19,664 bases of DNA, from the UHGV virus genome UHGV-0301534; one strand, given 5' to 3'. The position numbers were made by a program, and so were the translations under genes. The notes below the pieces were generated by a model that saw only the letters and a list, made by a program, of their open reading frames with translations, ran no database searches and had not been told where the DNA came from. Origin of the DNA: a virus. Below, in pieces: positions 2,476 through 19,664 of this stretch (the stretch's first letter is position 1; every line of letters starts with the position of its first letter).

Positions 2476-4641
2476 ATGGCCGACGAAAACAGACTCAATT
2501 CCATTCTGTGTAAGTTTGACGCGGACTGGATGGCGAGCGATGAAGCCAGAACCGAGGCGACAAATGACCTGTATTTTAGCCGAGTGTCGCAATGGGATGA
2601 CTGGCTATCAAACTACACTACCCTGCAATATCGCGGACAATTCGATGTTGTTCGCCCGGTGGTCAGGAAACTGGTCGCAGAGATGCGCCGGAACCCTATC
2701 GACGTTCTCTTCCGACCCAAAGACGGCGCTAATCCTGATGCTGCCGATGTGCTGATGGGGATGTATCGTACTGATATGCGCCATAACACGGCAAAAATTG
2801 CCGTTAACGTTGGCGTTCGTGAGCAGATAGAGTCCGGCGTTGGTGCATGGCGTCTGGTCACCCAGTACGAAGACAACGACCCAACAAGCAACAATCAGGT
2901 AATCCGACGCCTGCCAATCCATGAAGCCTGCTCACACGTCATATGGGACGCCAACAGCAAGCAGATGGATAAGAGCGACGCTAAGCACTGCACGGTGATT
3001 AACGCTTTGTCACGCAATGGCTGGAAAGAGTTCGCAGAGGATTACGGTATTGATCCTGACACCTTGCCATCTTTCCAGAATCCGAACGATACATGGCTGT
3101 TTCCGTGGGTATCGAATGATGTCGTCTACGTCGCTGAGTATTACGAGGTCGAAGAGAAGAAAGAGAAAGTCTTCATCTACCGCGACCCGCTGACAGGTGA
3201 GCCGGTCAGCTATTACCAGCAGGATATCAAAGACGTCATCGACGACCTGGCTAATCGTGGATTCATTAAGGTAGCAGAGCGTAAGGTGAAGCGTCGGCGT
3301 GTGTATAAGTCGATTATCACCTGCACGCAGATACTGAAAGACCGCGAGAAGATAGCCGGAGAGCATATTCCAATCGTTCCAGTGTATGGCGAATGGTCAT
3401 TCGCTGGTGACAAGGAGTGCTACGAAGGAGTGGTAAGGCTGACGAAAGACGGTCAACGCCTTCGTAACATGATCATGTCGTTCAACGCCGATATTGTTGC
3501 TCGTTCACCGAAGAAGAAACCGACCTTCTTCCCTGAGCAAATCGAAGGCTACGAATACATGTACGGTGGAAATGATGACTATCCGTACTATCTGCAGAAC
3601 AGGACCGATGAAAACGGTAACGACCTGCCGATTGGTCCAATCTCCTACATGGAAAACCCTGAAGTGCCGCAAGCCAACGCTTACATGCTTGAGGCTGCCA
3701 CCAACGCAGTGAAAGAGGTGGCTAGTCTTGGCGTGGATGCGCAGGCGGCAAATGGTCAGGTCGCTTTCGATACCGTCAATCAACTGAACATGCGGGCAGA
3801 CCTTGAGACATACGTGTTTCAGGATAACCTGGCTACCGCAATGCGACGTGATGGCGAGATTTATGCCTCAATGGTCAACGATATTTATGACGTTCCTCGT
3901 CATGTGACGCTGACACTTGAAGATGGAAGCGAGAAAGACGTTCAACTCTATGCGCAAGTTGTCGATTACCAGTCCGGCAATGTGGTCACACTCAACGACA
4001 TTCGCGGTCGCTATGAGTGCTATACAGACGTTGGGCCATCCTTCCAGAGCATGAAGGAACAGAATCGCGCAGAGATTCAGGAGTTGCTAACCAAGGTTCC
4101 GCAAGGTACTCCAGAGTTCCAGATGCTGATGCTGCAATACTTCACGTTGCTTGACGGTAAAGGCGTCGAGATGATGCGAGAGTACGCGAACAAGCAACTG
4201 GTGATGATGGGGCTGAAGAAACCAGAAACACCTGAAGAGATGGAGATGGTGCAGCAGGCACAACAACAGCCGCAGCAGCCATCAGCAGAGCAAATTCAGG
4301 CGCAGGGTATCCTTCTGCAAGGTCAGGCTGAATTGCTCAAGGCAGAGAACCAACAGGCGCAGATTCAGGTTGAAGCCGCCAAGGTTGAAGCCCAAAACCA
4401 ACTCAACGCCGCGAAGATTGCAGAAATCTTCAACAATATGGACCTCGACAAGCAGGCAGAACTGCGTGAGTACCTCAAGCTCGTAGGTCAATTCCAGCAA
4501 CAGCGCAGCAAAGATGCTCGTGCTAACGCTGAGCTGCTTCTTAAAGATGCAGACCAGACTCATTCACAACGCATGGATTTCGCGAATCTTATGCGTCAAG
4601 TTCAAATCCCCTCCGGCGGAGTAGCCGAGACACCTCAATAA
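2476..4641 (+). CDS. 1: portal protein (P22 gp1-like), 721 aa
   Basis: Starts 1 nt after the gene 2 stop; near-collinear with recalled P22 portal, including the Gln-rich C-terminal barrel segment. Confidence 0.95.
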
Positions 4642-6905: not shown

Positions 6906-7142
6906 ATGACACACATGATCTTTCGTCATGGAGACATGAAGAAATGGAAAGGCGTTGGATACGACTTTGAAATAGTGAAAGCCGAAGAGCTTCAGGAATA
7001 TCTGGATGCTGGCTGGTTTTCACATCCTGATGACCTTTTGAAGGATGTTGCAGAGCCGGAGCCAGAGCCAGAAGAAAAACAGCGTAAAAAGCCTGGTCGA
7101 AAACCTAAGGCGGCAGCAGATGAACCTGACAACGAAGGGTGA
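6906..7142 (+). CDS. hypothetical small charged protein (78 aa) between coat and gp4; 3' end overlaps the gp4 start in another frame
   Basis: ATG at 6906 with GGAGA at 6896-6900; C-terminal [18 protein letters not shown] low-complexity tail; the track ORF (6858) begins inside the terminator so the internal ATG is preferred. Confidence 0.45.
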
Positions 7143-7620
7143 TTTAGTTCTTGCGGCATTACGTAAGCTCGGTGTGGCATCAAATGCCACGTTAACCGAT
7201 GTCGAACCGCAGTCTATGGAAGACGGCGTCAACGACCTTGAAATGATGATGGCTGAATGGCTTGGCGGTGATGCGTCACCTGGGATCAACGTTGGCTACA
7301 TTTTTGCTGATGCAGATGTCGCTCCAGATCCGGGCGATGAGCACGGCTTATCAAATAACGCTATAAATGCCGTCATTTTCAACCTTGCCTGCCGCATTGC
7401 TCCAGATTATGCGCTGGAAGCGTCTGCAAAACTTATAACCACTGCCAGATACGGGAAAGAGCGACTCGTCAAACTGTCTGCAATGGACAGAGCAAAAGCC
7501 GCTAAATGTAAGTCCGGTTATCCAAACCGTATGCCTGTTGGTAGTGGTAACCAGTTGGCGAAGTGGAACGGTTGGAATTACTTCCAGCGAAAGGAACCTT
7601 GCGATAACGGGAGCGAATAA
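7120..7620 (+). CDS. 4: head-to-tail adaptor / tail accessory factor (P22 gp4-like), 166 aa
   Basis: From the internal ATG at 7120 the product begins [33 protein letters not shown], matching the P22 gp4 N-terminus and length; the 7045 start in the ORF track is a spurious upstream extension. Confidence 0.9.
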
Positions 7621-12567: not shown

Positions 12568-14405
12568 TGAAAGTAACTGCAAACGGTAAGACATTTACCT
12601 TTCCTGATGGTACGAGCACCGAAGATATTGGCACCGCCATTGATGAGTATTTTGCTGGTCAGGCTGTTCAGCAACAAACAGTTAATCAGGCCAATAATGC
12701 ACCAACACGGGAAGAACCATCATTGATGCAACAAGCTGGTGATTGGCTCACAGGTGGTCAAAGTGCAGGGCAAATTGCAGAACAGGCTGGTCGTGGTCTG
12801 GTAAACATACCATTTGACGTATTGCAGGGTGGCGCAAGTCTGATTAATGCAATCAGCCAGGGGCTTGGCGGCCCCAAGGTTTTGGATGATGTTTATCGCC
12901 CTGTCGAGCGACCGACAGACCCTTATGCGCAAGCTGGAGAAACAATTGGCGGGTATTTAGTTCCAGGAGTTGGAACGGCAGGAAGCATGGCTATTGGATC
13001 ACTGGCAGAGGCCGCAAATCAGAAAGGCGATTTCGCACAAAATGCAGCTAAAAATGCCGGAGTTAACCTTGCCGCTCAGGGTGTTCTTTCCGCAGCAGCA
13101 AAGGGAATAGGGCGTGGAATAACGGCTATAAAAGGTGATATTGCGCCAGAAGTGGCGAAGAAAATTGCCACATCAGAATCGATGGGCGTGACACCAATGA
13201 CATCTGATGTTATCCCGCCGAAAAATGCTTTCACTCGCGGACTTACTCAGGATGCTGAGGGGGCTTTGCTCGGGACAGGCTCAAAGCGAGCTGAGCAATA
13301 TGCAACGCGTAGTAAGCTGGTAAGCAATTATTTTGACCGTTTTGGTGAGTACAACCCTGATGATGTGGTGAAGTCTCTTACCACCACGTTAAGGGGGCGG
13401 AAGGATGCCGCTGGCGCTGTTATCAATGACGTCACCAATAAAATGGGTAATGCCGCAGTTGATACCACAAATACCATGAATGCTCTGAATACAGCGATCG
13501 CAAGACAGGAACGGCTTGGGACGTCTGCCAATCAAAGCCTGCTTACATCCTTGCGTAACCTGCGTGAAGAATTAGCAAACCCTGCAACTGATTTGGATGT
13601 TACGTTTGATCTCTTGCGTCAGCACAGAACAGCATTTAGATCTAATGTTCAGGGAGATGCTATGGTCTTCCCCAACCAGGCAAAAGCAGCTACCAATATG
13701 GTAGAGAATGCAATGTCAAAAGACCTTCGTAACGCAGTTGCAAAAAACCTCGGTGCGTCAGACGCAGCAAAATACCTTAAAGCAAATTCCGATTATGCAA
13801 ACGTTTATAATAAGGTGCTTAATAAAAACATTGCTAACAAGCTCAACAAGGCAAGCAGTGAAGCCAGTCCTGAACTTATAAATACTGTTGTATTAAGCAG
13901 AAAACCATCTGACGTGAAACGAATCTGGAGCGCATTGGATGATAAAGGGAAAGATGCTATGCGTGCAGCTTACGTCAGCAAAATAGCGGAAAAGGCCGGG
14001 GACTCTCCAGCCAAGTTCATCACTGAAGTTAATAAGCTGAAATCTCAGTCAGGCGGTGAAATTTACAACACTATTTTTTCTGGAAAGCACATGAAAGAGC
14101 TTGATGCTCTTCATGAAGTTCTACAGCAAACAGCAAGGTCAGACACCGCAAATGTAGTAACTCAGACTGGGCAATCACAAGCCAACAGGATAAGGACGAT
14201 TGGCGCAACTGCGACTCTTGGCGTATCAATGGGGATTGAGGCTGGTTTCGGTGCAATGATGCGCTTGTATGAGTCCAAAGCAGCAAGGAATGCGCTCTTA
14301 CGTCTGGCAAACACCAAAGCAGGAACACCAGCCTATGAAAGAGCGTTGAGTAACGCAGCAAATGCCATCAGGCCGCTGCTTGCTACTGAGGCAACACAGC
14401 AGTAA
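12564..14405 (+). CDS. 16: ejection protein, P22 gp16-like, 613 aa
   Basis: ATGA overlap with the gene 20 stop; synteny and length close to P22 gp16. Confidence 0.88.
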
Positions 14406-14429
14406 CGTATGGGTAATTGGATTCAATCG

Positions 14430-14819
14430 TTAACATTTTCTTTTTACTTTTCCAACAAAAGCTTTGGTTGAATCCATATTCCCATAACCAGAAATGGTTT
14501 TCGACATTAAAACTGTTCCATTAGGATGTATTACCCATGAGTCGATAACTCGTTGAGTTTCGCCATTCGCGCCGATTCCAATGATGGAGTTTTTAGACAA
14601 TGCTTTGTAAGCCATGCCGCCCGCATCCGTCCCAGAATATGTGATACTGGCATCTTCACCGTTTGTCTTAATGATGAATGTTCCACTAAAACCATCTTCT
14701 TCCGGTTGAAAATTATTTCGTTCTGAATAGCTTATTCCGTGCATATCCCCAACGACCCAGCACTCTGCTGAGACAGAAAACGAGAAGACAAGGAAAGCCA
14801 TTGCTATAATCAATTTCAT
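14430..14819 (-). CDS. exported protein of unknown function, 129 aa, with signal peptide and two Cys in the mature part (one next to the predicted cleavage site, one as the last residue)
   Basis: N-terminus MKLIIAMAFLVFSFSVSA-ECW is a typical Sec signal with AxA-like cleavage site; AAGGG RBS 7 nt upstream on the - strand; mature part rich in G/S/T/I/V; occupies the position of P22 sieA. Confidence 0.7.
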   Translation of the reverse strand: MKLIIAMAFLVFSFSVSAECWVVGDMHGISYSERNNFQPEEDGFSGTFIIKTNGEDASITYSGTDAGGMAYKALSKNSIIGIGANGETQRVIDSWVIHPNGTVLMSKTISGYGNMDSTKAFVGKVKRKC

Positions 14820-14834
14820 TTTAAGCCCTTATTG

Positions 14835-15170
14835 TTATTGATTCTTTTTGCACGGAAATGTTTTTCCTACTGCTAGGGCGGTTAGTATAACTGCGCTCTC
14901 ATTTCTTGATTCTGGGTTTTTGTTTAGATATTTCTCAACGATATCGGTGTATTGATACATGTCAACGCCATCAGGAGGACATAGAGAACCAATTAGTATC
15001 AATGAGTCAGTTACTCCGCGCAAATATCCAGTAATGTAAAGCGATGAAAAATCATCACCCTTTTTACCTTGTTGAATGTTGTAAAGAAGGTCATTACCCG
15101 TTTGAAGCTCGCGCAGCTCAGCACTGGAAGAAGAGACAACTGCTAACAAGAACAGTGATAGAAATCTCAT
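14835..15170 (-). CDS. exported protein of unknown function, 111 aa, with signal peptide and two Cys in the mature part
   Basis: N-terminus MRFLSLFLLAVVSSSSA-ELRE is a Sec signal; start codon overlaps the mnt stop (ATGA on the - strand, 15167-15170) with AAGGA 6 nt upstream, so translation is coupled to mnt. Confidence 0.7.
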   Translation of the reverse strand: MRFLSLFLLAVVSSSSAELRELQTGNDLLYNIQQGKKGDDFSSLYITGYLRGVTDSLILIGSLCPPDGVDMYQYTDIVEKYLNKNPESRNESAVILTALAVGKTFPCKKNQ

Positions 15171-15421
15171 TTCAAATCCTTTTCATAAATCTTTTTAAGT
15201 GTCTCAAACACTATAGCCTTGAACTGCTCAGCCTGCTGATCAGCCAAGCGTTCAGCTTCGTCGCGATATCCTGTAATCGGTGATGGTTTTGATAGTGCAT
15301 CCTGAACGATTTGTAATAACTCAGAGTTCATTGACCTTCCGTTAGCCTCGGCTCTTAATTTCAATTTTTCTCTTACTTCCAAAGGCATACGGAAGTTAAA
15401 GTGCGGATCATCTCTAGCCAT
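15167..15421 (-). CDS. mnt: Mnt repressor (ribbon-helix-helix), 84 aa
   Basis: Product MARDDPHFNFRMPLEVREKLKLRAEANGRSMNSELLQIVQDALSKPSP... matches recalled P22 Mnt; the ORF-track 207-aa version is an upstream extension running antisense through arc/ant. Confidence 0.9.
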   Translation of the reverse strand: MARDDPHFNFRMPLEVREKLKLRAEANGRSMNSELLQIVQDALSKPSPITGYRDEAERLADQQAEQFKAIVFETLKKIYEKDLK

Positions 15422-15443
15422 GCCATCACTCCAAGTTAGTGTA

Positions 15444-15472
15444 TTGACATGATAGAAGCACTCTACTATATT
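15444..15472 (+). promoter_or_regulatory. Pant promoter (-35 TTGACA 15444-15449, -10 TATATT 15467-15472) with the overlapping Arc operator (ATGATAGAAGCACTCTACTAT)
   Basis: Sequence matches the P22 Pant/Oarc region as recalled; TAGA...TCTA half-sites between -35 and -10; directly upstream of arc. Confidence 0.7.
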
Positions 15473-15477
15473 CTCAA

Positions 15478-15496
15478 TAGGTCCACGGTGGACCCA
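15478..15496. promoter_or_regulatory. Mnt operator (Omnt)
   Basis: Perfect palindrome GGTCCAC-G-GTGGACC at 15480-15494, matching the P22 mnt operator core. Confidence 0.75.
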
Positions 15497-15511
15497 TATT
15501 GTGAGGTGAAT

Positions 15512-15673
15512 ATGAAAGGAATGAGCAAGATGCCGCAGTTCAATTTGCGGTGGCCTAAAGAAGTATTGGATTTGGTCCGCAAGGTGGCGGAAGAGAATGG
15601 TCGGTCTGTTAACTCTGAGATTTATCAGAGAGTAATGGAAAGCTTTAAGAAGGAAGGGCGCATTGGCGCGTAA
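15512..15673 (+). CDS. arc: Arc repressor (ribbon-helix-helix), 53 aa
   Basis: [53 protein letters not shown], near-identical to recalled P22 Arc; GAGGTG RBS at 15503-15508. Confidence 0.93.
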
Positions 15674-15741
15674 AGTTGAAGCCCCAACTGCGGGAACAGT
15701 CAGGGCTTCGGTTGTCAGTAAATCCGTGGAGAAAAACCAAC

Positions 15742-16644
15742 ATGAATAGTATAGCAATTTTAGAAGCAGTGAACACCTCTTACGTACCATTCAACGGTCA
15801 GCAAATTATCACCGCCATGGCTGCCGGAGTTGCATATGTTGCGATGAAGCCAATCGTTGAAAACCTTGGAATGAGCTGGTCAACGCAGCAAACAAAACTC
15901 ATGAAGCAGATTAGCAAATTCAACTGTGTTCATATGAACATGGTTGCCGCTGATGGGAAGCTTCGTAAGTTACTCTGCCTTCCTTTGAAGAAGTTAAATG
16001 GGTGGCTGTTCAGCATCAACCCTGAGAAAGTTCGTGCTGACATCCGCGATAAACTGATTCAGTACCAGGAAGAATGCTTTACTGTGCTGCATGACTACTG
16101 GACAAAGGGAAAGGCAGAAAATGCACGTAAGAAAACATCTGTTGATGACAGGACTCCGCTTCGTGATGCTGTAAATATGCTGGTCAGCAAAAAGCATCTA
16201 ATGTACCCAGAAGCTTATGCAATGATTCATCAGCGTTTCAATGTGGAAAGTATTGAAGAGCTTGATGCATCTCAGATACCGCAAGCCGTAGAGTACATCC
16301 ACAGGGTAGTGCTTGAAGGTGAGTTCATTGGCAAACAAGAGAAGAAAACCAACGAGCTTTCTGCAAAAGAAGCAAACAGCCTTGTATGGTTATGGGATTA
16401 TGCCAACCGTTCACAGGCATTATTCCGCGAACTGTATCCGGCATTAAAACAAATTCAATCGAACTATTCCGGCAGATGTCATGACTGCGGTTATGAGTTC
16501 TCCCGTATTATCGATATAGCGAGAGACGTTTTAATTAATCACACACGAGATGTTGATATCAATGAGCCAGACGGACCAACGAATCTTTCCGCATGGATGA
16601 GACTTAAGAATAAAGAATTACCTCCTTCAGTACATAATTACTGA
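15742..16644 (+). CDS. ant: antirepressor Ant, 300 aa
   Basis: From the internal ATG at 15742 (GGAG upstream) the product begins [37 protein letters not shown] as in P22 Ant; length 300 aa; the 15676 start is a spurious extension. Confidence 0.9.
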
Positions 16645-16744: not shown

Positions 16745-18844
16745 ATGACAGACATTACAGCCAATGTTGTAGTAAGCATGCCTTCGCAACTCTTCACTAT
16801 GGCGCGTTCTTTTAAAGCGGTTGCCAATGGTAAAATTTATATCGGTAAAATTGACACTGACCCGGTAAATCCTGAAAACCAGATTCAGGTTTATGTGGAG
16901 AATGAGGATGGTTCTCACGTTCCTGTTTCGCAGCCAATCATCATTAACGCCGCTGGTTATCCTGTATATAACGGACAGATTGCCAAATTCGTGACAGTTC
17001 AAAGCCATAGCATGGCTGTGTATGATGCATATGGAGCACAGCAATTTTACTTCTCCAATGTCTTAAGATATTCACCAGATCAGCTAAGATATGATCTTTC
17101 ACAGCCAGATGGCGCGAAATTAGTAGGATTTAAAGACACCAATGTATACGATGCAATAAGCTCAATAAGCGTAGATTTCTCAGCGCTTGGAGAGTCAAAT
17201 GGAGCCACCTTGGTTGGCTATAGGGACAGCACCGTTTATACAGCTCTTGATAGATTATACAGATCGTTAGGAGGCGTGATTATATCTCCTCAATGGAAAC
17301 CAGTTGCAGGATCATCAACTATAAGCTTTTCTGGCGGTCTTTATTCTTTTAATGGCGTTAGTGTTATTGGTCAAAATCAGAATGTCACAACAACATCAAG
17401 CACAATATGTATTGTTGTTAAATCAGACGGAACATATGAAGCGCGTGACAGATATCCATTTGACGGCTCGCTACTTATTGCTCATATTAAATCAGGGACT
17501 CTTATAGAATTAATTGGCAATGCAAATAAAAGTGCTTTTGGAATTGCCGGATGCCCATCATCAATACCATGGTTTCCAGGTGAGCTGAGAAGAATAGAAG
17601 AGCAGATTCCAATTTACTGCGCACTTCGTTCTGATGGCACGCTTAGATATTGGACTGATTATGATGTGGCTGTGAAGAAGGCATCCAGCGGGACAACATA
17701 TTATGTGGACTGCACTAACGGTAGTGATACGACTGGAGACGGCACGCAGGCTAAACCATTCCAGCGTATAAAATATGCCATTGAGAAAACCCCGGCAGCA
17801 AGGACAATCATGATAAAAGGCGGGATGGAATATACCCGTGATTTTACATGGAATGTTAGCGTAGTTGACCGCGAGCTCGATTTCATCGGATACGATGGAA
17901 CACCAATTCTGAGCACTGTTGAACCGGCTGCAACGTGGGCGGCACAGGGAAGCGCTGGCGTATACCAGTACACAGGTAATCTTGTTCTAAACGTTGTTGA
18001 CTATGCCAATCTTGATAGTTATGGACATGCTCAGGTTCTAACTCCCGTAGCCAGCCTTGCCGACTGCGTTTCAACACCTGGCTCATCCTATAAAACAGGG
18101 AATACGCTGTATATTCATCTTTTTGACGGGCGAGCTCCTGATTCTAATTCACGGCTTGTTCTTCAATTGACTAATGGAAGAATTCAGGATAATAGCAAAG
18201 TTTATATTGAAAATATTCACTTTAAGGACAGCTTTAGGGGGTTTCAGGCTGAGGTTCAAACGGCGGGTAAAAAAGGATACTTATATGCAAAAAATTGTAT
18301 ATTTGATTTATCTGTGACAAGGAATGCCTTTAACTCTTTAGGTGTAAACTGTATTATGCAGAATTGCACTGCTCAATACGGGATGCAGGACGCATTTAAC
18401 TATCATGCCGATCAGAATGGTCTTGGGATAAAGCCGTGGTTTATCGAAATTGGTTGTACTGGCCGTTGGAGTGGTTTTGATAATTTACCAAATAATAACG
18501 GCTCTACCGCTCATGACGGAACTGTAGGGATACGTTTGAACGGTGAATACTACGGAACGTTTGGCCGTGTAGTTCACGATGTTCATGATGGCACGGTTAC
18601 AGCTAACTTTGGGTGTTACTCGCATGATAGTTCAAGGGCAGACTTTATCGGTGGCGCCTGCTTTACTGCTGGGCAAGGATCCGACTTAACTGGTAAAGCA
18701 AAGTTATATCTTTATGGATGCAGCCATGGGGGACCTAACGCGTCAATTACAAAAGATGGTTTGAGTGAGGTGTGGATTTTCGATACTCCCATAGGGGCTA
18801 ATGCACAATATACCATCGCTTCTCCTTACACTTTTATTCAATAA
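16745..18844 (+). CDS. 9: tailspike protein: P22 gp9-like head-binding N-terminal domain fused to a non-P22 receptor-binding domain, 699 aa
   Basis: First ~110 aa ([86 protein letters not shown]...) match P22 gp9; remainder does not match the P22 endorhamnosidase domain; GGAG RBS at 16733-16736. Confidence 0.9.
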
Positions 18845-18849
18845 AATGA

Positions 18850-18893
18850 TTGACTGTTGATTAACGCAAACAATACTGTATATAAATACAGTT
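18850..18893 (+). promoter_or_regulatory. SOS-regulated promoter: -35 TTGATT (18857-18862), -10 TATAAA (18881-18886), overlapped by a consensus LexA box TACTGTATATAAATACAGTT (18874-18893)
   Basis: CTGT-N8-ACAG with AT-rich spacer matches the enterobacterial LexA box consensus taCTGTatatatatACAGta; lies 17 nt upstream of the next start codon. Confidence 0.75.
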
Positions 18894-18909
18894 TTGTTTG
18901 GTAAGAGAC

Positions 18910-19149
18910 ATGATCAGACGTAACGCCATCGCGGAGGCTTTCAGAGCCTCCATTTCTATAAATCCTAAAGGTTATCAATACCTTTACACTGATTCTTTCA
19001 TCTCCGAACTACAGCGGAGGGGTATCCATTTTTCAGAAGAGGAGGCTAACAACTGGATATCAAGAGAGCAGACGTACTTTGTCGACAAAACGGCAGAGCA
19101 TAGCGAAAACAGGCTGTGGATGATGGCCAACATGGGGAGGGTCATCTGA
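18910..19149 (+). CDS. hypothetical small protein (79 aa), first gene of a LexA-box-controlled two-gene operon
   Basis: ATG at 18910 with AAGAG just upstream (the track's 18898 start is a TTG inside the LexA box); stop overlaps the next start (TGATG). Confidence 0.6.
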   Translation: MIRRNAIAEAFRASISINPKGYQYLYTDSFISELQRRGIHFSEEEANNWISREQTYFVDKTAEHSENRLWMMANMGRVI

Positions 19150-19466
19150 TGGCGTTCCCGTCTCCGGCGTCTGACTACGTTGAGCAGCGTCTGTCTGTTA
19201 ACGCGATCTGCAATGTAGGCCCAAACACGCTAGTTTTCGAGCGGTCTGGCGGTTACGTTGTGTTGGATATCTCCCTGAAACCAAGGCAGGGTAGTCAGGT
19301 TCTGATCCAGCACGGCGGCGGGACGGAACTTGCCACGTTGAGAGGGCGGTCGCTGATAACCGAAGACGGCGAAGCGATTGAAGGCGAGGCCCTGGATGAT
19401 ATCACTGTCGCCGGCGTGGTGACACACACCATCATCGATGTGAGAAGTGACAGCGTAGCGGTATAA
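19149..19466 (+). CDS. UmuD'-like (LexA/S24 peptidase C-terminal-domain fold) protein lacking the cleavable N-terminal arm and the catalytic serine, 105 aa
   Basis: From the ATG at 19149 the product begins MAFPSPASDYVEQRL, near-identical to the start of processed UmuD' (GFPSPAADYVEQRI); C-terminus LDDITVAGVVTHTIIDV resembles UmuD LDVFGVVIHVV; the SGDSM active-site motif reads SGGYV. Confidence 0.7.
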   Translation: MAFPSPASDYVEQRLSVNAICNVGPNTLVFERSGGYVVLDISLKPRQGSQVLIQHGGGTELATLRGRSLITEDGEAIEGEALDDITVAGVVTHTIIDVRSDSVAV

Positions 19467-19496
19467 GGCAGGCTTTTTATGTGGCCTGCCGCTTTT
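19467..19496 (+). terminator. possible rho-independent terminator after the UmuD'-like gene
   Basis: GGCAGGC (19467-19473) ... GCCTGCC (19484-19490) stem with a 10-nt loop, followed by GCTTTTG; loop is long so confidence is moderate. Confidence 0.45.
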
Positions 19497-19611
19497 GATT
19501 ACTGTGTCTTTTCGTCCAGCCAGTCCGCCCACCACTGCATCATCTACCTGCGCTTATCGAGATACTGAGCATGGTTGTAAATTCAACTAACCCAGTGCAT
19601 TGACAAAAAAT

Positions 19612-19646
19612 TAGCGCAAGAAGACAAAAAATCACCTTGCGCTAAT
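19612..19646. repeat. 10-bp perfect inverted repeat TTAGCGCAAG / CTTGCGCTAA separated by 15 nt, just downstream of a TTGACA hexamer (19601-19606)
   Basis: Read directly from the sequence; could be an operator or a terminator stem for an element beyond the window end. Confidence 0.4.
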
Positions 19647-19664
19647 GCTCTGTTACAGGTCACT

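Follow-up and report, generated by a model that had tools for sequence, protein, structure and literature searches.

The 19,664-nt virus genome stretch UHGV-0301534, called the window here at its full length, carries directly behind its tailspike gene two small overlapping genes preceded by a LexA operator (SOS box). The first, orfA, encodes a conserved protein of 79 amino acids (aa), and the second, orfB, a protein of 105 aa that resembles UmuD', the processed form of UmuD. The pair probably forms, if with no great certainty, a module induced in the SOS response that provides translesion synthesis with a pre-processed UmuD' or modulates one, a moron of the type represented by humD of phage P1. 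Of the three roles offered in an earlier note on this DNA (antirepressor, mutagenesis modulator or damage-responsive accessory system), that of a mutagenesis modulator is the most fitting. A prophage of E. coli STEC346 shares 99.3-99.7 % identity with the region. The module is made up of the following elements, given with their positions in the window and their strand:

18850..18855, plus strand: probable -35 hexamer TTGACT, assigned from the alignment with relatives and with umuDC of E. coli K-12; a promoter scan made the same choice.
18874..18893, no strand: LexA operator TACTGTATATAAATACAGTT, of which the left half, TACTGT, is the probable -10.
18903..18907, plus strand: weak ribosome-binding site (RBS) AAGAG for orfA, from reading the sequence.
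18910..19149, plus strand: orfA, conserved 79-aa protein of unknown function, phrog_3893.
19136..19140, plus strand: strong RBS GGAGG for orfB, located in the final codons of orfA (M-G-R-V).
19149..19466, plus strand: orfB, 105-aa short UmuD'-like (HumD-related) protein with an S24 fold and without the catalytic dyad.
19467..19500, plus strand: hairpin resembling an intrinsic terminator (stem-loop at 19467-19490), followed by the short T-run GCTTTTGATT.

The module begins 6 nt past the stop codon of the tailspike gene. The start of orfA at 18910 agrees with that of all 79-aa homologues. Its TGA (19147-19149) and the ATG of orfB (19149-19151) share one A (TGATG), and the sequence places GGAGG 8 nt upstream of the orfB start at 19149. 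The hairpin at 19467-19490 has an 8-bp stem with 6 G-C pairs and a value of -16.5 kcal/mol (z -3.0). The 79-aa open reading frame (ORF), its overlap with a UmuD'-like gene and the hairpin behind them had all been described in the earlier note and were found where it had put them. Both orfA and orfB show coding-type evolution.

The LexA box was judged by its identity to the 20-bp consensus TACTGTATATATATACAGTA and to the operator of K-12 umuDC. It matches the consensus at 18 of the 20 positions, with a perfect core. It is the sole CTGT-N8-ACAG in the 19.7-kb window, where 0.27 are expected, and also the only site there with three or fewer mismatches to TACTGTATATATATACAGTA; none of 200 shuffled sequences gave one. 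The near-identical prophage of STEC346 has this box as well and, along its full 47 kb, no second site of this kind. The near-consensus SOS box proposed earlier was thus confirmed, with the small correction that 16 nt and not 17 nt separate it from the ATG of orfA. The promoter proposed along with it, TTGATT (18857-18862) and TATAAA (18881-18886) with an 18-nt spacer, is present in the sequence and its -10 is indeed overlapped by the box, but these hexamers are not conserved among relatives. Conserved are TTGACT (18850-18855) and, after a spacer of 18 nt, TACTGT, which forms the box's left half. This combination is the most probable promoter because it is conserved in relatives and resembles that of umuDC. 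Under either assignment, the LexA box overlaps the -10.

About 20 related loci share the box and the -35, including those whose 79-aa protein is no more than 25-40 % identical. The loci compared came from isolated phages (HK225, HK140, Eeyore, Flotzy, Klebsiella phage RothC, Erwinia phage Eho59 and Cronobacter phage phiES15), from genomes of E. coli PK6, Raoultella, Leclercia and Silvania, from metagenomic contigs with orfA relatives of 25-34 % identity, and from P1, N15 and BTP1, phages that carry humD only. An alignment of 16 upstream regions showed that TACTGTAT...CAGT is invariant while the interior and the flanks of the box vary, and that the -35 (TTGATC, TTGACC or TTGACT), located 17-18 nt upstream of the box, is nearly invariant. 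The distance from the end of the box to the first start codon is 16-23 nt in nearly every intact related locus; in the exceptional locus L024, the box lies about 290 nt upstream. The box has been kept in front of the first gene in PK6, RothC, HK225, Eeyore, Flotzy, HK140, Leclercia, Silvania, Eho59, phiES15 and two Raoultella loci, in one of which its right half is degenerate (CCAGT). It is also kept at humD of P1, gene 26 of N15 and in BTP1, and it was retained in four loci, three of them metagenomic and one genomic, with an orfA merely 25-34 % identical to that of the window. Two decayed related loci have no LexA box. The control region of umuDC in E. coli K-12 consists of TTGATC, N17, TACTGTATATAAAAACAGTA and 19 nt to the ATG. 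The boxes of umuDC and the window differ in only 2 of 20 bases, at the non-core positions 14 and 20, and the K-12 umuDC 20-mer recurs unchanged in the PK6, Leclercia and Silvania loci. The database record of P1 gives the homologous site as a LexA binding site of lxr and humD. The proposal of a bicistronic module under LexA control, made in the earlier note for this site, is therefore strongly supported by comparison of sequences. BTP1 (L011, 2464-2861) has a humD-type gene that is frameshifted and missing from the annotation, with its LexA box, TACTGTATTAATATACAGTA, intact; the gene is located between gtrA and int and is opposite in strand to an annotated hypothetical coding sequence (CDS).

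The protein encoded by orfB matched the 'UmuD-like' PHROG family with an E value of 7e-44. It has the beta-fold of the S24 domain, the C-terminal domain of LexA, UmuD and CI, and its fold resembles the C-terminal domains of repressors as well as UmuD'. Residues 2-43 of orfB align without a gap to residues 25-66 of UmuD, and the multiple alignment agrees; the protein therefore starts, as HumD does, at the Gly25 position that RecA-mediated cleavage creates in UmuD. Its N-terminus, M-A-FPSPAxDYVEQR, carries the GFPSPAxDYVEQR arm at the processed position. Both this arm (FPSPAxDYVEQR) and the C-terminal strand (VxGVVTH) have been retained and align with UmuD'. In tblastn comparisons, orfB was 33-35 % identical to HumD of P1 and gp26 of N15 over about 95 % of its length. 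The multiple alignment placed it in a short clade of proteins of 105-108 aa, in which Lys97 is replaced. In the clade of HumD proteins of 128-129 aa, D91, E93 and K97 are retained and position 94 is conservatively Tyr or Phe. These features are consistent with a protein that never requires RecA-mediated cleavage and, as judged from its sequence, orfB is a pre-processed, catalytically dead and trimmed UmuD'. A distant short UmuD'-like partner without the nearly invariant GFPSPA arm was seen in locus L022 (3242-3550). It begins MENVAVPRFRLEEICGV...; the remainder of the domain is present, as are the LexA box and orfA, and an additional ORF of 82 aa comes next.

The two genes of the module occur together in most relatives. 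A UmuD'-like gene, of the short or the 129-aa type, is located directly downstream of orfA in 16 of the 21 orfA-bearing loci examined, and the stop and start codons of these pairs overlap or stand 1-6 nt apart. In HK140, the partner of orfA is a full HumD of 129 aa. The pairing persists at loci with an orfA only 25-34 % identical to that of the window. Rearrangement is visible in three of the five exceptions, two with an invertase junction (HK225 and L014) and one with a 13-residue remnant of UmuD' (L017); the other two (L012 and L025) are short contigs. Several relatives also have a dinI homologue, which diverges from the same LexA box in HK225 (L004, 2162-2449), HK140 (L010, 910-1176) and Flotzy (L021, 1895-2161) and, by annotation, in Eeyore (L005). 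One operator may govern both dinI and orfA-umuD' in these phages, and the genes together form a small SOS island at the junction of tail-fibre genes and attachment site (att) in several relatives. The phage of the window has no dinI, and its tailspike gene abuts the promoter.

The 79-aa product of orfA had not been recognized in the earlier note, and homology, profile and structure searches were no more informative. Its only family match was phrog_3893 (E value of 9.6e-38), of unknown function; nothing was found in Pfam, NCBIfam, PADLOC or the sequence profiles of the PDB. Close homologues number 290, and those with a named source are mostly from Klebsiella or E. coli. A hidden Markov model search of 1.84 billion proteins yielded 115 cluster representatives at an E value of at most 0.001, most of them similarly small. 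The AF2 model (pLDDT of 71) shows a small alpha/beta domain formed by residues 1-56 and a C-terminus of low confidence, and it had no significant structural neighbour. Conserved positions are F11, F30, L34, N47 and W49, together with a C-terminal ENRxW/FxLxNMG motif. Comparison of orfA by hhalign with UmuC and with DinI of HK140 gave a probability of 0.2 % in both cases, and profile comparison with Lxr of P1 one of at most 0.2 %. Membership of the DinI/ImpC family was considered and rejected, as neither orfA nor any of 28 relatives matched the Pfam DinI family (PF06183). Literature searches for phages with the module brought up no discussion of these genes. OrfA is an orphan family of temperate phages and prophages of Enterobacterales. 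In L014, from Raoultella ornithinolytica (2986-3318), and in HK225 (L004, 2501-2800), the C-terminus of orfA is fused to a fragment of a DNA invertase of the Hin/Gin type or orfA runs into an invertase gene, and the UmuD'-like gene is lost. Such junctions account for the name 'putative invertase' and for the Pfam HTH_7 match of longer members of the family.

A module of this composition could work as follows. In an undamaged lysogen, LexA bound to the operator at 18874-18893, over the -10, would block transcription, as the conservation of the site suggests. After DNA damage, activated RecA would bring about self-cleavage of LexA, and orfA-orfB would be transcribed up to the hairpin at 19467. 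Late, antiterminated lytic transcription probably reads into the module too, because no terminator is present between the tailspike gene and the module. At prophage induction, orfB would then provide host polymerase V (Pol V, UmuC) with a ready-made UmuD'-type subunit or modulator. By bypassing the slow RecA-dependent processing of UmuD, it might help to copy a damaged phage or host template. A helper role of this kind is proposed because HumD has been described as a functional homologue of UmuD': this is reportedly what McLenigan found in 1999, and according to the P1 record, humD 'functionally complements E. coli UmuD''. OrfA would most likely work together with the UmuD'-like protein or upon it, be it as cofactor, stabilizer or specificity factor; it is the linkage of the two genes that points this way.

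Several observations weigh against orfB being such a helper. It scored 42.8 bits against the NCBIfam HumD equivalog model, with a cut-off of 120, and gave no match to Pfam Peptidase_S24, which HumD of P1 and of HK140 both pass; the PRK10276 model was not passed either (27 bits, cut-off 110). The short clade lacks a 12-residue segment that holds the catalytic Ser60. According to the cryo-electron microscopy structure of RecA with UmuD, UmuD contacts the RecA groove by Y52, D91, E93 and F94 (PMC9926225). These residues are not retained in the short clade. Because both the 12-residue segment and the RecA-contact residues have been lost, orfB may no longer serve as a subunit of Pol V and could instead be an inhibitor or decoy. 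The association with orfA is not strict either. P1, N15 and BTP1 carry a LexA-boxed humD without orfA, and in HK225, L014 and L025, orfA stands without a UmuD'-like partner gene; the former three show that the two genes are separable. Moreover, the conservation of the C-terminus of orfA (NMGRV) may in part reflect the RBS of orfB embedded in its codons.

The strongest competitor, unlikely but to be taken seriously, is that orfB is indeed a decoy or inhibitor which forms heterodimers with UmuD, UmuD', LexA or the S24 domains of CI-type proteins, with orfA as its partner. Mutagenesis by Pol V would be damped, or RecA-dependent cleavage retuned, during induction. The losses just described would suit such a protein, as both the catalytic dyad and the RecA-groove residues are gone, and the N-terminal arm and the VxGVVTH strand still align with UmuD'. 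That its fold matches the C-terminal domains of repressors equally well points in the same direction. There are also precedents for small proteins that bind S24 proteins, namely DdrR with UmuDAb and gp7 of GIL01 with LexA, going by titles cited in PMC11332147. However, HumD of P1, the closest characterized relative, has been reported to complement UmuD' and not to inhibit. A somewhat more doubtful variant is that orfA and the dead, pre-cleaved S24 domain together would serve not as a polymerase accessory but as a regulatory device timed by the SOS response. It would dock onto S24 proteins, be it UmuD/UmuD', LexA or the CI-type repressors of its own or rival prophages. If true, such a device would adjust mutagenesis, the shut-off of the SOS response or the cross-induction of prophages and represent a new class of phage-encoded S24-domain modulators.

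Less credit still can be given to orfA as a small LexA-controlled antirepressor, of the kind of GfoA and GftA of the Gifsy phages, Tum of 186 or AntC of N15, with the UmuD'-like gene as a passenger in the way of dinI in the Gifsy operon. Induction of this or of co-resident prophages would then be tied directly to the SOS response. A small LexA-boxed protein encoded outside the immunity region corresponds to the layout in the Gifsy phages, in which the LexA-regulated operon has the order dinI, antirepressor, irsA (PMC3121763). The divergent dinI of HK225, HK140, Flotzy and, by annotation, Eeyore adds to this likeness, and antirepressors can act in trans on other prophages (PMC3121763). An antirepressor is nevertheless not needed here, since the repressors of the window-type prophage (234 aa) and of HK140 (238 aa) carry a Peptidase_S24 domain (59 and 83 bits, respectively) and are of the self-cleaving CI type. 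The prophage already has a P22-type Ant in immI as well as an antirepressor of the KilAC type. The module resides on very different, heteroimmune phages, of which the two repressors examined are both S24-type. The one consistent neighbour of orfA is the UmuD'-like gene and not a feature of an immunity region, and neither Pfam nor PHROG linked orfA to known antirepressors. The antirepressor role suggested in the earlier note is thus disfavoured by the S24-type repressors and the heteroimmune carriers.

That the pair would be an SOS-induced toxin-antitoxin system or an abortive-infection or defence cassette is very improbable. LexA boxes also precede dinJ-yafQ, yafNO and tisB. A pair of small genes in the position of a moron, the stop codon of one overlapping the start codon of the other, would suit a system of this type, and another probable pair (a Panacea-domain gene and its partner) is found elsewhere in the prophage. 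However, neither protein gave a PADLOC match at an E value of 1 or lower, neither has a Pfam toxin or antitoxin domain, orfB clearly has the S24 fold of the UmuD' family, and there is no hydrophobic peptide.

The surroundings of the module identify it as cargo of a P22-like prophage. It is flanked in the window by the following features:

16745..18844, plus strand: tailspike gene, an ORF of 699 aa with the P22 Head_binding domain at residues 1-113 (E value of 3.8e-65).
19499..19582, minus strand: what is left of the 3' end of an integrase gene (84 nt), given in RefSeq for STEC346 as a pseudo CDS 'missing N-terminus'.
19508..19664, no strand: DNA common to many lambdoid phages near their att/int ends, 88-95 % identical to phages 434, mEp332, Huey and others.

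We take the segment 19508-19664 to be the P arm of a lambda-type attP. In STEC346, the module is the last intact gene pair ahead of the prophage's right end. It is followed by the integrase remnant, the DNA shared with lambdoid phages and ybhB-bioA, the attachment locus of lambda; at the other prophage end, a tyrosine integrase and an excisionase lie next to ybhC. The prophage's right end lies just beyond the window. The earlier note had taken the module for an accessory replacement in the slot in which P22 has gtr, or for DNA at or past the prophage end. The first holds: the module is located within the prophage, shortly ahead of its right attachment site. In BTP1, this slot between tailspike gene and attP contains gtrA and gtrC. 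The note had also suggested a look at the flanks, in which an integrase remnant and att-like DNA were indeed found; umuC is absent from the module. Other E. coli strains have the same two genes between the tailspike gene and an intact intS, at a tRNA-Arg site next to yfdC, and homology to this intS-type locus extends to about position 19584. The integration module was apparently exchanged and the orfA-orfB cargo retained, leaving a recombination scar at 19499-19664. Wherever flanks could be read, the module was located between tail-fibre or tailspike genes and att/int, and it is therefore phage cargo and not a host operon.

At a nucleotide identity of at least 80 %, the module was found in 146 of 5426 complete E. 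coli genomes (about 2.7 %), in which its genes are always annotated as 'hypothetical protein' or 'S24/S26 family peptidase'. It is also present in many phage and genome records of Klebsiella. The carriers of orfA are diverse and include P22-like, lambda-like and HK97-like phages, Erwinia phage Eho59 and Cronobacter phage phiES15. An ordinary host SOS operon beside the prophage, the finding that the earlier note had named as speaking against its proposal, or a chance palindrome is refuted by context, distribution and conservation and has next to no probability left: the promoter-operator does resemble that of chromosomal umuDC, but the module lies inside the prophage before attR, with ybhB-bioA only after the phage att arm, it is carried by the isolated phages HK140, Flotzy, Eeyore, RothC, Eho59 and phiES15 and by so few of the E. 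coli genomes, and the box is conserved across deep divergence.

Other genes of the prophage were observed along the way. A Panacea-domain gene and an adjacent gene of 139 aa are situated at about 13798-14665, between the DNA-transfer genes and immI; from the RefSeq annotation of STEC346, they look like a toxin-antitoxin moron of the PanA type. The immI region (about 14678-16643) contains three genes of the Arc family and the P22-type antirepressor (P22_AR_N and P22_AR_C). Outside the window, the prophage has a KilAC antirepressor in its nin region and a serine protease resembling SDH/ClpP beside the S24-type repressor. An ORF with a NUMOD4 domain, which resembles homing endonucleases by annotation, was located at about 6924-7469, between the genes for packaged-DNA stabilization and the tail needle in the P22-like late operon.

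LexA-regulated phage homologues of UmuD' have been known since HumD of P1, so that the regulatory logic and the family of the module are not new. What is new is the shortened UmuD' without a dyad, which has given up all that RecA-mediated processing calls for and is usually paired with an orphan protein of 79 aa. This form is widespread in clinical Enterobacterales and has not been studied. If it supplied UmuD' instantly, the delay before mutagenic Pol V becomes active would be shorter, which would be relevant to stress-induced mutagenesis and to how antibiotic resistance evolves in lysogens of clinical species. Should it inhibit or redirect S24 proteins instead, phages would have in it a new means of manipulating the SOS response. 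OrfA itself is a clearly delimited unknown that is easy to test and offers a clear regulatory handle.

The module can be compared with a number of known systems. The DdrR-UmuDAb pair of Acinetobacter and gp7 of GIL01 with LexA share with it, judging by titles cited in PMC11332147, a small protein that directly binds a protein of the S24 family, as is proposed here for orfA and orfB. UmuDAb is a full-length, DNA-binding and self-cleaving repressor, unlike orfB, and the organisms are different. The dinI-gfoA-irsA operon of Gifsy, tum of 186 and antC of N15 resemble the module in being LexA-boxed small-protein operons outside the immunity region with which an SOS-modulator gene is associated. The repressors of these antirepressor phages are not cleaved, whereas those of the window-type prophage and HK140 are S24-type; no sequence relationship was detected between the module and the antirepressor operons of Gifsy, 186 and N15.

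A parallel to the gene order is offered by the impCAB operon of plasmid TP110. In this mutagenesis operon, likewise located on a mobile element, a small gene (impC) also stands ahead of that of a UmuD homologue (ImpA). The operon is under LexA control and ImpC is DinI-like; its third gene is named in the title of Lodwick 1990. The module differs from it in that orfA is not DinI-like and in that a polymerase gene of the impB/umuC type is absent. With umuDC of E. coli it has in common the arrangement of a -35, 17-18 nt and a LexA box of which the left half serves as the -10, the overlap of the first and second cistrons by one base, and a UmuD-like protein, orfB, that aligns to residues 25-66 and to the C-terminal strand of UmuD. 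In contrast to umuDC, it lacks umuC, its first cistron is the unrelated orfA, and its UmuD-like protein is, by prediction, pre-truncated and catalytically dead.

The phage genes humD of P1 and gene 26 of N15, with gp23 of phiKO2, come nearest to orfB. They too are UmuD' genes that start at the processed N-terminus (MGFPSPAxDYVE). In P1 humD and N15 gene 26, 16-20 nt separate a LexA box from the start codon downstream of it, and in N15 the gene follows the tail-fibre gene. HumD and gp26 are longer, with 128-129 aa compared with the 105 aa of orfB. Those of P1 and N15 keep Lys97 and the acidic patch for contact with RecA, and HumD of P1 keeps the Ser too. Neither phage has orfA; P1 has a divergent lxr, which is unrelated to it. 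The earlier note had missed both the affiliation of the module and the type of its control region: it belongs with the LexA-regulated humD genes of phages, such as humD of P1 and gene 26 of N15, and its regulatory region is of the umuDC type.

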